Shown in pieces: positions 17,747 through 24,485 of a stretch of 64,000 nt of DNA; the stretch's first letter is position 1; each line of letters begins with the position of its first letter. The DNA is from Candidatus Saccharimonadota bacterium (GTDB lineage: Bacteria; Patescibacteriota; Saccharimonadia; CAILAD01; BJGX01). The position numbers and the translations under genes were made by a program. The notes under the pieces are model-generated. The model saw only the letters and a program-made list of their open reading frames with translations. It did not search any database and was not told the origin of the DNA. The stretch lies in the NCBI GenBank assembly GCA_016191105.1, contig JACPPH010000002.1:67268-131267 (forward strand). The letters are read 5' to 3'.

Positions 17747-17821
17747 TGGGGCGTAGCCAAGTGGTAAGGCACCGGTTTTTGGTACCGGCATTCGCAGGTT
17801 CGATCCCTGCCGCCCCAGCCA
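17747..17821 (+). tRNA. tRNA-Gln (anticodon UUG)
   Basis: Cloverleaf with a 7-bp acceptor stem UGGGGCG/CGCCCCA and a U1:A72 pair typical of bacterial tRNA-Gln. D-loop 'AGTGGTAA', anticodon loop 'tt-TTG-gt', T-arm 'GGTTCGATCC', encoded CCA. Very similar to E. coli tRNA-Gln. Confidence 0.9.
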
Positions 17822-17967: not shown

Positions 17968-17985
17968 TCCCTGCCGCCCCAGCCA
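17968..17985 (+). repeat. 18-bp perfect direct repeat of the tRNA-Gln 3' end (TCCCTGCCGCCCCAGCCA), att-like
   Basis: Identical to 17804..17821, 164 bp downstream, and followed by an A-tract/GACCC..GGGTC/T-tract hairpin. Confidence 0.8.
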
Positions 17986-18179
17986 TAGTGCCTATGCTCA
18001 AAATGACCCATTTGGGTCTTTTTTGATATTTACTCGCCAGGTGTGGCGATAGGCAGATCGGCAAATGGGCTAGAAACCAAGCAGAGTTACTAAGCAATCG
18101 CCCACGACAAGTCGAAATTAAGGCTTAAGAAAACTGGCTAGCTCCAGCAAAAATTAATCTTATATGTTACAATCTGACT

Positions 18180-18518
18180 ATGATTTCCGGGGTAAAAAGT
18201 AAGTTATTTACAACCTTGGTTACCATAGCGTTGCTGCTTGGTGGTTTAGCGATATTAAATTTCTACTCAATGTCAATGCAGCCCACCAGCGAACATTTCG
18301 ACTACAACACAACCTGTAAAATTGCTTGCTTTGGCCAGGCTATTGGTAATCTTGGTGCCGCTCCTACTAATCCTGAAAGTTTGGTACTAGTTTTATCGTT
18401 TGCAGGGCTGGTGGCTGGGTTTGCTGTCGGTACAACTAACACCGGGGTCTTTAACAAGGCCTTTCGTTATAGCCTAGGGCCGCCGCTCTACAAACGCTTT
18501 GAGTCTTATCGTGATTAA
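18180..18518 (+). CDS. hypothetical small membrane protein
   Basis: Two TM helices. Leaderless: TGtTACAAT at 18165-18173, then 6 nt, then the ATG. Confidence 0.4.
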   Translation: MISGVKSKLFTTLVTIALLLGGLAILNFYSMSMQPTSEHFDYNTTCKIACFGQAIGNLGAAPTNPESLVLVLSFAGLVAGFAVGTTNTGVFNKAFRYSLGPPLYKRFESYRD

Positions 18519-18564
18519 AAAAATCTCTTGTAGTAGAAAGTACTTTACAAATTAAGGAGATAAT

Positions 18565-19101
18565 ATGAAATCTAAAATATGGCCTGTAGTGATAGGCTTA
18601 AGCGTGCTCGCGGTTGCGCTGTTTATCGGATTCGCTATTACTCGCCCCGATGTACCGCCAGGGCAGGCAAAGACCTCAAACACCACAAATAAATCAACTG
18701 ACTCCAATATAGTCTCGAACAGTGAGATCCATTGGCACCCAAAATTAGCGGTATATATTAACGGACAAAAACAAGAGATTCCAGCCGAAACAGGAATTGG
18801 TCAGCAGTATGCCAAAAGCCGTTGGTATGATTCTATGATGCAAATGGCGAACATACATACTCACGACAATAGTGGTCAATTGCATTGGGAAGTAATGGAG
18901 GGCCCGGTTCGAAAAGACCAAGTTCGTTTGAGTGCGTTTTTTGACGTTTGGGACAAGAAGTTCAGCAAAATCCAGGTGTTCGACAAGACCGACCCTAAAG
19001 GGTCAAAAATCACCATGACTGTTAATGGCCAGCCTAACAGTGAATTCGAAAACTACATGGTGGCCGACAATGATCAGATTGAAATAAAGTATCAAGATTA
19101 A
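18565..19101 (+). CDS. membrane-anchored secreted protein with His motifs (HWH, HTHD)
   Basis: N-terminal TM/signal region, RBS AAGGAG, His-rich motifs. It sits at the head of the metal-homeostasis cluster. Confidence 0.45.
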   Translation: MKSKIWPVVIGLSVLAVALFIGFAITRPDVPPGQAKTSNTTNKSTDSNIVSNSEIHWHPKLAVYINGQKQEIPAETGIGQQYAKSRWYDSMMQMANIHTHDNSGQLHWEVMEGPVRKDQVRLSAFFDVWDKKFSKIQVFDKTDPKGSKITMTVNGQPNSEFENYMVADNDQIEIKYQD

Positions 19102-19111
19102 CAGGGAGATA

Positions 19112-19546
19112 ATGATGAAGCAGGAATCAATACTATATGGTGTGATTGGCTTACTAGTGGGTGTACTGTTGGCTATGTTTGTGTCAGCCATTGTTGCTAA
19201 TTCACAAAACCAAACAATGATGCGAGCGATGTGCATGAACACGGGCAACGGAATGAATGGCTCGTCGATGAGCATGGAGAATATGACGAACCAGCTCAAA
19301 GCCAAGTCTGGTAGTGAGTTTGAGAGGGCCTTCTTAGAACAAATGACTGTACACCACCAAGGGGCTATTGGTATGGCTAACCTGGTCTTACAAAAGTCCA
19401 CAAGACCGGAGTTGCGCAAACTTGCCGAAGACATCGTTGCTGCTCAGACCAAAGAAATCAACCAAATGAAAGAGTGGCAAACACAGTGGAGCTATGCAAC
19501 TAGTTCTAGCTCAAATAGTAGTAATATGGGTGGAATGGCTAATTAA
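19112..19546 (+). CDS. DUF305 family protein (often associated with metal resistance)
   Basis: 'VHHQGAIGMA..LRKLAEDIVAAQTKEINQM' is the DUF305 signature. N-terminal TM helix. Confidence 0.65.
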   Translation: MMKQESILYGVIGLLVGVLLAMFVSAIVANSQNQTMMRAMCMNTGNGMNGSSMSMENMTNQLKAKSGSEFERAFLEQMTVHHQGAIGMANLVLQKSTRPELRKLAEDIVAAQTKEINQMKEWQTQWSYATSSSSNSSNMGGMAN

Positions 19547-19637
19547 GTAAAAGTTTGCAGCTTTGTTGCCAACACAACTGAGCACTAACAGGTTAGCTGC
19601 TAGTTATAACGCCGATGCACAAGGCGGGGCTTGATTA

Positions 19638-19654
19638 ATACCCCTCAGGGGTAT
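19638..19654. promoter_or_regulatory. candidate CsoR/RcnR-type operator ATACCCC-tca-GGGGTAT overlapping the -10 region of the repressor gene
   Basis: Perfect 7-bp-arm palindrome with C/G tracts directly abutting the TACAAT -10 box (19654-19659). The ATG is at 19669. Confidence 0.6.
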
Positions 19655-19668
19655 ACAATAAAATCAAT

Positions 19669-19953
19669 ATGAATGCTGATATAAAAAAGCGCTATGTCCA
19701 TCGCACGAGGATTATCGAGGGTCAAATCCAAGGCCTACAAAAAATGATAGACAGTGAAGCCTATTGTATGGATGTATTGACGCAGAGCTTGGCTATTCAA
19801 CGGTCGCTCGCATCATTAAACAAGCTAGTGCTCGAGAACCATTTACGCACTCACATTACAGATATGTTTGGGGCCGGCGATAGCAAAGCCCAAAAAAAAG
19901 CGGTTGCTGAGCTGCTAAGCCTATACGAACTTAACAACATTCGGGGTAAGTAA
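19669..19953 (+). CDS. CsoR/RcnR/FrmR-family metal-sensing transcriptional repressor
   Basis: 94 aa. X-Y-Z residues C33, H58 and H62 with RcnR-like 25/4 spacing. Confidence 0.8.
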   Translation: MNADIKKRYVHRTRIIEGQIQGLQKMIDSEAYCMDVLTQSLAIQRSLASLNKLVLENHLRTHITDMFGAGDSKAQKKAVAELLSLYELNNIRGK

Positions 19954-20231
19954 TGTTAGGCAAGCGTTTGCGGGAGTTTATGCGGTGTCATCAGGGCAAA
20001 GTTAACCTATTGCTACATGTTGTTGGTTATTCTCTGGTTGGTGTTGGTATTTGGCAGAAGAGTTTCTGGTATGTGATTGCGGGTGCGATAGTTCAAGAGC
20101 TTGGTCATTTTTATCAGTACGTCAAGACCAAAAACTACAAAGACAGCCCACTTTATTGTCTAAGATCGCAGGTATTATTTGCGCTGCCGGCTTTAAGCTT
20201 AATACTTATTTACATTTGGATAGCACGGTAA
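19953..20231 (+). CDS. hypothetical small membrane protein co-encoded with the repressor
   Basis: 92 aa with 2-3 TM helices. Its start overlaps the repressor stop. Confidence 0.4.
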   Translation: MLGKRLREFMRCHQGKVNLLLHVVGYSLVGVGIWQKSFWYVIAGAIVQELGHFYQYVKTKNYKDSPLYCLRSQVLFALPALSLILIYIWIAR

Positions 20232-20376
20232 GTTGCCAAAAATGACTATAGCCAACCCCGTTCATCACGGCAGCCAACAAGATAGCGCTAAACATGCTGG
20301 CCGCCTAATAGCTATGTTTAGCAATAAGTTTTAGGAAGGTATTAACCAACAATTTAAGTCACAAAGATTAACAATA

Positions 20377-22533
20377 ATGGAGTCAAAAATGTCTAAACAT
20401 CAAATCAATTCTAATAACGAAGCCATGCAAGGCATGACAGAATCAGAACATCATATGCATCACATGTCTGAGGGAAACATGACACGGTGGCAGAAATTTA
20501 AAATGAGTATGACTATGACCATGGGTATGGATCATAGCGGACTGGCCGGCCGCGAAATGGCCAAAATGATGGAAATAGACATTCGCAATAAATTCTTTTT
20601 TGCTCTAATACTATCTGTGCCGATCATTGCTTATTCGCCACTCGGAACTAGCATTCTAAAGTTGAGCTTGCCCCAGCCGATCCCGGCAGCTTGGATACTG
20701 TTGATTCTTACGACACCGGTATTCTTCTATGCCGGCTGGATATTTTTGTACTCTAGCTATCATGCGCTAAAAGCCAGGACACTCAATATGGCTGTTTTGA
20801 TTGCGGTTGGTATATCGGCGGCGTATTTTGCAAGTATTTTGCTGACCTTGGTAGGCAGTTCGGAATCGTATTATGAGGCTGCTGCTCTGTTGATTACTTT
20901 CGTGTTGTTTGGTCACTGGATGGAAATGAAGTCTCGGCGCGGAACAACCGATGCCTTACAGGCTCTGTTTGATCTGGTGCCACCTCAGGCCCGGCTAATA
21001 CGGGGCAATAAAGAGGTTATGGTATCGACCAGCGAGGTGCGAGTTGGCGACATCTTGGTATTAAAACCGGGCGACAAAGTTCCGGTTGACGGCGAAGTGA
21101 TAAGTGGTCAAACGTCTATCGATGAAGCCCTTGTAACGGGCGAGTCGCTACCTGTTAGTAAACAAAAGGGTGACCCCGTAACCGGCGGATCTATCAATCA
21201 ATCTGGAACCGTCCGAATCAAGGCTACCAAGGTAGGATCAGATACGGTTTTGGCTCAAATTGTTAAAATGGTTGAAAACGCCCAAAACTCCAAGGCGCCT
21301 GGCCAGCGCCTGGCCGATAAATTTGCCGGCTATTTAGTAATCTTGGCCATATCGGCTGGGTTGCTAACCTTTGCGGCTTGGGCTGTGTTTTCTAATCAGG
21401 GTTGGCTATTTGCACTAACCCTAGCAATATCGGCTGTGGTAATAGCCTGCCCCGATGCACTTGGCCTAGCCACGCCCACCGCCGTAGCCGTGGGCACTGG
21501 TTTGGGTGCCAAACATAACATTCTTATAAAAGATGCTGCTACGCTTGAGCAAACTGCCAAGATCCAAGCCGTTGTACTCGACAAAACTGGCACTCTCACC
21601 GAAGGCAATCCCCAGGTTACCGATGTAGTAAGCGTGGCTGGTTTCAAAAAAGACCATCTTATAGAATTGGTTGCCGCCGCCGAGGCTGGCTCTAGCCACC
21701 CCTTGGCGCAAACCATCATCAACGAAGCTCATAAGCGCCGCCTTAAGTTGGTGGCCGTCAAGCGGTTTAATAATATTGCTGGGCTTGGTGTGGAAGCGGT
21801 GGTAGAAGGTAAGCGAGTACTGGTAGGAACCGAGCGGCTTATGAAAAATCGCAAGCTCTCAACTAAAGCCATTCAGGCCGACATCGACAGGTTGCTAGCA
21901 GAGGGCAAGACCCTCATGATTATTGCCATTAACGACAAGGTATCTGGTGTTATAGCGGCCTCGGACAAGATTAAGCCGACCGCCCAAAATGCCATTACCG
22001 CTATGCAGCAACTTGGTTTAGAGATTGTTATGATTACTGGTGATAATCAGAAGACCGCAGACATCGTTGCTAAGCAACTAGGTATTAAGCGTTATTTTGC
22101 CGAGGTCTTGCCTGCCCAAAAAGAAAGTTATGTAAAAAAACTTCAAAGCGAAGGCCGGTTTACGGCTATGGTTGGAGATGGGGTTAACGATGCGCCGGCG
22201 TTAGCCCAAGCCGATATTGGTATTGCTATCGGGGCGGGTACAGATGTGGCTATAGCAACAGCAAAAATTGTTTTAATGAAGTCTGATCCGACCGATATCA
22301 TAAGGGCTATTCGTTTGAGCAAAGCCACTATTCGTAAAATGAAGCAAAATTTAGGCTGGGCGAGTGTCTATAACATTGCTGCCATTCCTATTGCTGCCGG
22401 AGTATTATATCCAGCTTATGGCGTTTATCTTAGACCAGAGTTCGCGGCGCTTCTAATGTCGGTTTCGTCAATTTTTGTGGCCGTGAATGCGGTTATGCTA
22501 AAACGGGCCGAAAAGCAGCTGTTAACGGTGTAG
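20377..22533 (+). CDS. heavy-metal-translocating P1B-type ATPase (CopB-like) with an atypical CPD TM6 motif
   Basis: 'DKTGTLT', 'GDGVNDAPAL', TM7 'YN....P', TM8 'MSVSS.....N'. Met/His-rich N-terminus (HHMHHM, MSMTMTMGM) with no CxxC HMA domain. TM6 reads 'CPDALGLATPTA' (tgc ccc gat). Confidence 0.88.
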   Translation: MESKMSKHQINSNNEAMQGMTESEHHMHHMSEGNMTRWQKFKMSMTMTMGMDHSGLAGREMAKMMEIDIRNKFFFALILSVPIIAYSPLGTSILKLSLPQPIPAAWILLILTTPVFFYAGWIFLYSSYHALKARTLNMAVLIAVGISAAYFASILLTLVGSSESYYEAAALLITFVLFGHWMEMKSRRGTTDALQALFDLVPPQARLIRGNKEVMVSTSEVRVGDILVLKPGDKVPVDGEVISGQTSIDEALVTGESLPVSKQKGDPVTGGSINQSGTVRIKATKVGSDTVLAQIVKMVENAQNSKAPGQRLADKFAGYLVILAISAGLLTFAAWAVFSNQGWLFALTLAISAVVIACPDALGLATPTAVAVGTGLGAKHNILIKDAATLEQTAKIQAVVLDKTGTLTEGNPQVTDVVSVAGFKKDHLIELVAAAEAGSSHPLAQTIINEAHKRRLKLVAVKRFNNIAGLGVEAVVEGKRVLVGTERLMKNRKLSTKAIQADIDRLLAEGKTLMIIAINDKVSGVIAASDKIKPTAQNAITAMQQLGLEIVMITGDNQKTADIVAKQLGIKRYFAEVLPAQKESYVKKLQSEGRFTAMVGDGVNDAPALAQADIGIAIGAGTDVAIATAKIVLMKSDPTDIIRAIRLSKATIRKMKQNLGWASVYNIAAIPIAAGVLYPAYGVYLRPEFAALLMSVSSIFVAVNAVMLKRAEKQLLTV

Positions 22534-22675
22534 ATCGACTATTGGTAAGCGCCCTAGCTTAAGTAGTGTATCGCAACTTACGGCCAGATTTTTAGAGGAG
22601 TGCTTACCGATAGCTAACGATTGTGGTAGTAGCCAATGCCTAGGTGTTTTGTAAAACTAAGTTATAATTGTGGTT

Positions 22676-23551
22676 ATGCATAGCCACGACCGCCAGGCCT
22701 CAAGGTCTTTTAAGTTTGTAATTGGATTTATATTAAACACTGGCTTTACGGTGTTGGAGTTTGTTGTCGGCATAATGGCTGGCAGTTTGGCTCTTGTTTC
22801 AGATGCCTCGCACAATTTAACCGACTCGCTGAGTATAGCCATTGCCTTTGGTGGCGAGCGAGTGTCTAGTCGTCAGGCCAATGATAGCAAGAGTTATGGC
22901 TTTGGCCGGGTTTCGATTGTCACAGCTCTTATAAATGGCGTATTGCTATTCGCGGTGGCTGCCTATATTTTTTACGAAGCTTATTTACGAATCTTGAACC
23001 CCGAACCGGTCAAAGGGGGTTTAGTTGCAATTGTGGCCTTGGCTGGCATTCTTATAAATGGTGTAGTGGCTTTGCTGTTTTACAAAGACAAAGACGACCT
23101 CAATGTTAAAAGTACCTTCTTAAATATGGCCTTTGATACGCTTAGCTCGGTCGGCGCAATGATTGCTGGTCTTATTATACTCGTAACCGGCAATACGCTG
23201 GTCGATCCAATAATTGGCATCCTAATTGGCTGTATGCTTGTTTTTAGTGCCTATGGCGTGGTTCGGGATGCTTTACACATATTGTTAGAGGGTACCCCCA
23301 AAGATATCGATAGTTCTGAAATTGCTAATTTTATCTTGTCGTTCCCGCATGTCAAAGGAGTAGACGATCTACATATATGGTCGATCTCGTCGCATTATCT
23401 AGCTATGAGTTGCCATATTGTTATTGAAGAGGAAAATTTGCAGAGTAGCGTTGACCAAGTTAAGGCTATTAAAAAACAACTGCTAGGCAAATATCAAATC
23501 CAGCACGCCACGATTGAGACCGAGCTTAAGCATTGCGAGCCAAAGCACTAG
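22676..23551 (+). CDS. cation diffusion facilitator (CDF) family transporter
   Basis: TM1-2 'SLALVSDASHNLTDS' and the C-terminal cytoplasmic domain. Leaderless: TATAAT at 22663-22668, then 7 nt, then the ATG at 22676. Confidence 0.85.
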   Translation: MHSHDRQASRSFKFVIGFILNTGFTVLEFVVGIMAGSLALVSDASHNLTDSLSIAIAFGGERVSSRQANDSKSYGFGRVSIVTALINGVLLFAVAAYIFYEAYLRILNPEPVKGGLVAIVALAGILINGVVALLFYKDKDDLNVKSTFLNMAFDTLSSVGAMIAGLIILVTGNTLVDPIIGILIGCMLVFSAYGVVRDALHILLEGTPKDIDSSEIANFILSFPHVKGVDDLHIWSISSHYLAMSCHIVIEEENLQSSVDQVKAIKKQLLGKYQIQHATIETELKHCEPKH

Positions 23552-23647: not shown

Positions 23648-23677
23648 CAAAAAAAGACCCAAGCAGGTCTTTTTTTG
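23648..23677. terminator. bidirectional terminator A7-AGACC-caagca-GGTCT-T7
   Basis: Seen directly between convergent genes. Confidence 0.75.
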
Positions 23678-24307: not shown

Positions 24308-24485
24308 ATAAGCTGTCCTTTCTTGTGCTAGCTGTATAATGTTGAGTGGAGTCTATCATATATTAATACAGATGTCAATAGCAATTTGCTTATGTTTATC
24401 TGGGCAGACCCAATTGGTGTATAATTAGGGCAGTTCTAACCTGGAACAACGCCCAACTAATTATAATTTCAATTAAGGAGAGAAC

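Follow-up and report, generated by a model that had tools for sequence, protein, structure and literature searches.

A predicted CsoR type-2 operator in the promoter of a Saccharibacteria metal-repressor gene

Genes and promoter elements at the locus

We analysed a 64-kb stretch of Saccharibacteria DNA (the window) in which a small repressor gene lies between a DUF305 gene and a heavy-metal ATPase gene. The top protein hit, at 100% identity, comes from Saccharibacteria. A palindrome stands in front of the repressor gene. The features that concern us are as follows:

19112..19546, + strand: DUF305/CopM-like gene, directly upstream of the predicted operator (PF03713, 125.9 bits)
19631..19636, + strand: -35-like hexamer TTGATT (promoter scan: TTGATT-17-TACAAT)
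19638..19654, no strand: predicted CsoR type-2 operator (sequence, match to the Streptomyces consensus, 80/80 orthologous loci)
19654..19659, + strand: -10-like hexamer TACAAT (promoter scan; begins at the last T of the palindrome)
19669..19953, + strand: csoR-family repressor gene, 94 aa (Pfam PF02583, 78.5 bits)
19953..20231, + strand: 92-aa hydrophobic ORF (from the ORF list; its ATG overlaps the csoR stop codon, TAATG)
20377..22533, + strand: P1B-type heavy-metal ATPase, 718 aa, CopB-like (TIGR01511, copper-translocating, 596 bits)

Read directly from the sequence, the site at 19638-19654 is ATACCCCTCAGGGGTAT, which occurs once in the 64-kb window. Spelled in parts it is ATA-CCCC-TCA-GGGG-TAT, and the full local context of operator and promoter is cTTGATTaATACCCCTCAGGGGTATACAATaaaatcaatATG. 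The original prediction had placed the palindrome at 19638-19654 and a TACAAT at 19654-19659; the sequence agrees, and the two elements have one base, T19654, in common. The palindrome is perfect, as had been claimed, but its description as 7+3+7 is by itself too short. The true extent is 8+1+8, ATACCCCT-C-AGGGGTAT, with C19646 at the centre. Within the palindrome, a TAC-X9-GTA dyad spans 19639-19653, with TAC at 19639-19641, GTA at 19651-19653 and 9 nt between them.

The palindrome occupies the whole 17-nt spacer between the -35-like and -10-like hexamers and also adjoins TTGATT. The proposal that the operator sits at the promoter -10 of the repressor gene is therefore supported: the site fills the spacer and shares a base with TACAAT. 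It lies in the csoR promoter, 14 nt 5' of the csoR ATG, and type-2 operators are located in just such promoters of csoR or copper-efflux genes. The 94-aa ORF starts with an ATG at 19669, 9 nt past the -10, and no Shine-Dalgarno sequence precedes it.

The product of the upstream DUF305 gene scores 73 bits against the NCBIfam CopM model, under the cut-off of 90. This gene is outside the operator-controlled unit in the window and within the csoR operon in 23 orthologous loci. On the other side of csoR, the 92-aa hydrophobic ORF presumably encodes a membrane protein. Profile searches with this ORF gave no family match, and a homologue lies directly 3' of csoR in one orthologous locus (L002). The ATPase, which has a His/Met-rich N-terminus, CPD replacing CPH, YN(x)4P and MSVSS, is presumed to be the regulated efflux pump. 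It is separated from the 92-aa ORF by a 145-nt gap, which counts against taking co-transcription as established; the terminator scan found no terminator-like site on the + strand between csoR and the ATPase gene.

A ZitB-like CDF gene follows 140 nt 3' of the ATPase gene. We observed a perfect TATAAT at 22663-22668 and an in-frame ATG at 22676, 7 nt after it, without a Shine-Dalgarno sequence, so by its sequence the CDF gene may be leaderless and have its own promoter. We also observed that a tRNA-Gln(ttg) gene (17747-17821) ends in 18 nt, TCCCTGCCGCCCCAGCCA, of which a perfect repeat lies at 17968-17985, 164 nt downstream and just before the metal-gene cluster at 18180-23551. This repeat looks like the att-type duplication left by an integrating element. 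Two similar terminator-like hairpins, AAAATGACCCATTTGGGTCTTTTTT (18000-18024) and AAAAAGACCCAAGCAGGTCTTTTTT (23651-23675), flank the metal-gene cluster.

Inverted repeats are frequent in the window. Perfect 7+3+7 repeats number eight, compared to about four in shuffled sequences, and there are 83 perfect 7-bp inverted repeats with loops of 0-8 nt. For this reason we rejected palindromy per se as evidence for an operator. The specific motif ATACCCCNNNGGGGTAT (ATACCCC-N3-GGGGTAT) occurs once, and the next-best match in the window, at 24406, has three mismatches. Because 14 bases of this motif are specified, about 2e-4 occurrences are expected per 64 kb. No second copy of the operator turned up in the 64 kb, and the ATPase gene has none upstream. 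A search upstream of the CDF gene had been suggested; no CsoR-type site is found there (22663-22678 region).

The repressor and its operator compared with known systems

The 94-aa ORF had been taken for a CsoR/RcnR-family repressor, and both profile and fold bear this out. Its PF02583 score of 78.5 bits stands against a cut-off of 22.8, and the AlphaFold model (pLDDT 91) has three helices. The top fold matches, 2HH7, 4UIG and 4M1P, are all CsoRs, from M. tuberculosis, S. lividans and Geobacillus. By sequence, the closest solved relative is S. lividans CsoR (50.6 bits, the best match in the PDB), followed by the CsoRs of M. tuberculosis, Geobacillus and T. thermophilus.

The ligand residues of the window protein are Y32-C33, H58 and H62, an x-C-H-H set. 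Tyr-Cys at X, His at Y, His at Z and an invariant His11 were present in all 81 regulators examined. The protein is therefore not a canonical Cu(I) CsoR (x-C-H-C), since Z is His62 rather than Cys in all 81. It agrees with the Thermus-type Cu CsoRs (x-C-H-H) in its ligand set, in having no N-terminal W ligand and in its copper-efflux neighbours. We base this assignment on ligand set and gene neighbours, following the definition of the x-C-H-H Thermus-type Cu sensors (SSN cluster 17) in PMC8643695.

Three other members of the family were considered as candidates and rejected. The Ni/Co sensor RcnR does not fit, as the N-terminus, MNAD, has no His3, the operator is type 2 and rcnA is missing; against the NCBIfam RcnR model the protein reaches 38.5 bits, where the cut-off is 138. 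CstR, the x-C-x-C persulfide sensor, does not fit either: only C33 is conserved and Z is His, and with one conserved Cys the protein cannot work as a dithiol CstR. The formaldehyde sensor FrmR (P-C-H-x) has a Pro2 that is missing here, where position 2 is taken by N, I, R or K, and the NCBIfam FrmR model gives 40 bits against a cut-off of 133.

The best-matching known operators are those of streptomycetes. The consensus of the streptomycete CsoR type-2 operator, which has been defined experimentally, is ATATACCCCTNAGGGGTATAT (PMC3902906). S. lividans CsoR needs the TAC-X9-GTA dyad, and an operator with those bases exchanged was no longer bound (PMC3902906). The window site agrees with the type-2 definition of that study and matches every specified base of the conserved 17-nt Streptomyces core, in keeping with the original reading of the site as a CsoR-type operator. 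The type-2 operators of S. lividans csoR, copZA1 and copZA2 have a 17-nt core, ATACCCCTNAGGGGTAT, and a TAC-X9-GTA dyad identical to those in the window, and in both cases the regulator's own csoR carries one such operator.

R54 and Q81 of S. lividans CsoR are conserved in the window protein as R12 and Q39. In contrast, the Z ligand is His62 and not Cys, the equivalent of R57 is Ile15, and the window protein is a minimal one of 94 aa without the N-terminal extension. Where S. lividans has a copZA operon, the window has a CopB-like pump (CPD), and we recognised no gene for a CopZ-type chaperone in its vicinity. We also observed that Ile15 is invariant in a 30-sequence alignment; it replaces the second Arg of the S. 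lividans RLxR DNA-binding motif, with the operator unchanged. An Ala mutant of R57 in S. lividans CsoR gave no detectable binding.

The other known systems resemble the window in part. The window regulator shares its Cys-His-His ligand set with T. thermophilus CsoR (TTHA1719), which has been validated as a repressor of the copZ-csoR-copA operon and is counted among the Cu(I) sensors. However, the Thermus protein is less similar (36 bits) and its own operator, CCCCACCCCACCTGGGGTGGGG, lacks the TAC/GTA dyad. RicR is the best NCBIfam model match, but at 63 bits it falls far short of the cut-off for that model, 175 bits. In M. tuberculosis the ricR promoter contains the palindromic TACCCCGCTGGGTA (PMC3944814), so that a TACCC...GGGTA-type palindrome in the promoter and autoregulation of RicR are points of likeness. 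The RicR regulon differs in having five loci and in being restricted to pathogenic mycobacteria.

E. coli RcnR had been said to bind a TACCC..GGGTA-like site, which was mistaken: its site is type 1, TACT-G6-N-AGTA. RcnR is of the same protein family and has the C-H-H part of the ligand set in common with the window protein. RcnR needs His3 (H-C-H-H), recognises one uninterrupted G-tract and has rcnA as its target, none of which is true of the window. Mesorhizobium NreA is similar in that the compact promoter of its own gene has the operator between -35 and -10, but that operator is type 1 (G7 tract) and NreA controls a nickel system.

The CstR persulfide sensor uses a near-identical operator, ATATACCCTTATGGGGTATAT (PMC8643695), and the architecture of the cst operator is nearly the same as that in the window. 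The motif therefore identifies the repressor family and not the effector. CstR itself needs two Cys (x-C-x-C) and adjoins sulfide-detoxification genes, whereas the window has one conserved Cys and copper genes.

Conservation of the site and a model for autoregulation

A scan of GTDB species genomes yielded 80 loci with repressor relatives at 60-79% identity. These loci come from Saccharibacteria and, unexpectedly, from Microbacteriaceae. In 80 of 80, TACCC-N5-GGGTA is found at most 130 nt upstream of the orthologous gene, and in 78 it is perfect. The TAC-X9-GTA dyad, present in the window, is likewise invariant in 78 of the 80 orthologous sites. A palindrome missing from orthologous loci had been named as a result that would speak against the operator; all 80 loci carry the site, and they carry it in promoter register. 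When the sites are aligned on their centres, positions -8 to +8 are nearly invariant. The flanks are almost without information, except for a TTGACA-like -35 in Saccharibacteria at the position equivalent to the TTGATT of the window.

Extra perfect sites within 515 kb of loci were found only in L018 and L025. In L018 (2567-2626 and 2636-2923), we observed two operator copies, 45 bp apart, that precede a second, N-terminally divergent csoR about 0.9 kb upstream of the main copy.

Promoter geometry is conserved along with the site. Among the 53 Saccharibacteria loci analysed, most have their best -10-like hexamer beginning at the last T of the palindrome. The gap between the -10 and the ATG is exactly 6 nt in 43 of the 53, and a Shine-Dalgarno-like tetramer is missing in 52. 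This is the geometry of a leaderless mRNA, and the term leaderless is well supported for the family. The window gap is 9 nt, where a transcript start at about position 19666 would leave a 3-nt leader. The operon had been called leaderless; this stands for the family, and for the window it should read as a predicted leader of at most about 3 nt.

We propose, with a probability of about 0.85, that the palindrome serves as operator for the CsoR-family repressor whose gene starts 14 nt further downstream. Metal-free repressor would bind the TAC-X9-GTA dyad and the two C/G tracts, presumably as tetramers by analogy with S. lividans CsoR. Repressor sitting there would keep RNA polymerase off the promoter, given that the site takes up the full -35/-10 spacer and has one base in common with the -10. 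The transcript thereby silenced would have no leader or nearly none, and it would code for the repressor itself (negative autoregulation), for the presumed small membrane protein and most probably for the CopB-like P1B ATPase. Binding of metal at Cys33/His58/His62 would reduce affinity for DNA, so that the repressor gene would be derepressed together with the small ORF and, probably, the ATPase gene. Sequence, position and uniqueness of the site, the family of the protein, the conservation of site and promoter register and the association with copper-type ATPases come directly from the analysis, while repressor binding to this DNA, the transcription start, co-transcription of the ATPase gene and the effector metal are inferred. 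Counting against the canonical picture are His at Z, Ile15 at the R57 position and the longer -10-to-ATG spacing in the window.

The pumps that accompany the orthologous regulators are largely of one type. In 55 of the 80 loci csoR is followed, on the same strand, by a P1B ATPase gene, and the ATPase motifs found in the loci were CPH (47), CPD as in the window (3), CPC (2) and SPC (1). The CPH ATPases have His-rich N-termini and are of the CopB/P1B-3 type. A CDF gene is almost never linked to csoR in these loci. As a separate observation, the CPD variant of the ATPase is also present in L019, L044 and L050, with identities of 73-78% in the two that were compared (L044, L019). A CPD subtype has been noted in a few Rhizobiales pumps (PMC5552934).

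We observed that the cassette of operator, csoR (x-C-H-H) and CopB-type ATPase gene is common to Saccharibacteria and Microbacteriaceae (Actinomycetota), the latter represented by L026, L029, L031, L033, L037, L041, L043, L045, L048 and others. Across phyla, median identity is 64% for the regulator (maximum 76%) and 56% for the ATPase (maximum 65%), which about equals the divergence within Saccharibacteria. The sequence comparison suggests lateral exchange of the cassette between epibiont and host lineages.

A literature search found nothing relevant on CsoR in Saccharibacteria and no described transcription-factor sites in this candidate-phylum lineage. The operator reading gives Saccharibacteria a confident, directly testable cis-regulatory annotation, and it shows that the classical CsoR operator and its promoter geometry are conserved to nearly every base in both Saccharibacteria and Microbacteriaceae. 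No new mechanism emerges, and the operator is a further instance of a well-known type.

Effector metal, alternative readings and the motif in metagenomes

Copper is with good probability the signal for this repressor, and Cu(I) is the most likely effector metal. The x-C-H-H set, together with orthologues that are followed by CopB-type (CPH, here CPD) P-type ATPases, makes copper the likely effector. Of the three metals named originally, ligand set and neighbouring genes favour Cu over Ni and Co.

An effector other than Cu(I), acting on this repressor at this operator, is improbable; on this reading a Cys-His3 site formed by His11, Cys33, His58 and His62 might be tuned to Cu(II), Ni, Co or Zn. 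His at Z and His11 are present in all 81 regulators; however, x-C-H-H defines the Thermus-type Cu sensors, and the top sequence and fold matches are Cu(I) CsoRs. The C-H-H set is also part of the H-C-H-H of RcnR, but there is no His near the N-terminus at the RcnR W position, and the operator is type 2, unlike the type 1 of RcnR. A different effector would suit the unusual CPD/CPH pumps, and CPH pumps have been classified as Cu(II) transporters in some work. It would also suit the CDF transporter, whose ZitB-like gene is 140 nt past the ATPase gene. Nevertheless, the partners of the regulator are copper-type ATPases and a CopM-like DUF305 protein, while a CDF gene is almost never linked, and the one in the window has no operator.

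We regard as speculative the broader idea that regulators with x-C-H-H and His11 form a distinct sensor class for CopB-type (CPH/CPD) pumps. Such a class would sense another copper state or another metal through the Cys-His3 site and would have kept the type-2 operator despite the lost RLxR Arg, the whole cassette having been laterally exchanged between Saccharibacteria epibionts and their actinobacterial hosts.

The palindrome might instead act as RNA, as a terminator or attenuator hairpin for read-through from the DUF305 gene, rather than as protein-binding DNA. RNA folding does predict that the palindrome forms a stem of 7 bp closed by a 3-nt loop, but the fold is no better than that of shuffled sequences (z = -1.29), no U-tract follows it, the terminator scan made no call and there is no Rfam match. 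Across the 80 loci the stem bases are invariant and not covarying, which argues for sequence-specific recognition, and the site is kept although most orthologous loci show no upstream DUF305 gene. We therefore rejected the hairpin as extremely unlikely.

Two points speak for a palindrome that is bound by a different regulator or stands in the promoter spacer by chance: the window has many perfect 7-bp inverted repeats (8 with a 3-nt loop; 83 with loops of 0-8 nt), and paralogues of the CstR type recognise sites that are near-identical. Against this, a match to all 14 bases of the CsoR consensus would be expected only about 2e-4 times per window, the single conserved Cys rules out a dithiol CstR, and the site travels with csoR in 80 of 80 loci in two phyla. 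We regard this reading as practically excluded.

As the predicted operator of a CsoR-family repressor, the site offers a simple motif by which copper regulons can be sought in metagenomes. An exact motif scan of metagenome contigs gave 122 occurrences in 120 loci, with GC from 0.34 to 0.74. The motif adjoined a CsoR-family ORF in 43 of the 122 occurrences and a P1B ATPase or DUF305 gene in 9; a csoR-like ORF stood elsewhere in the locus in 11, and none of these contexts was found in the other 59. Since many metagenome contigs are short, the counts of associated sites are lower bounds. Genomes carry only a few CsoR genes, and therefore 43 of 122 would represent a very large enrichment.
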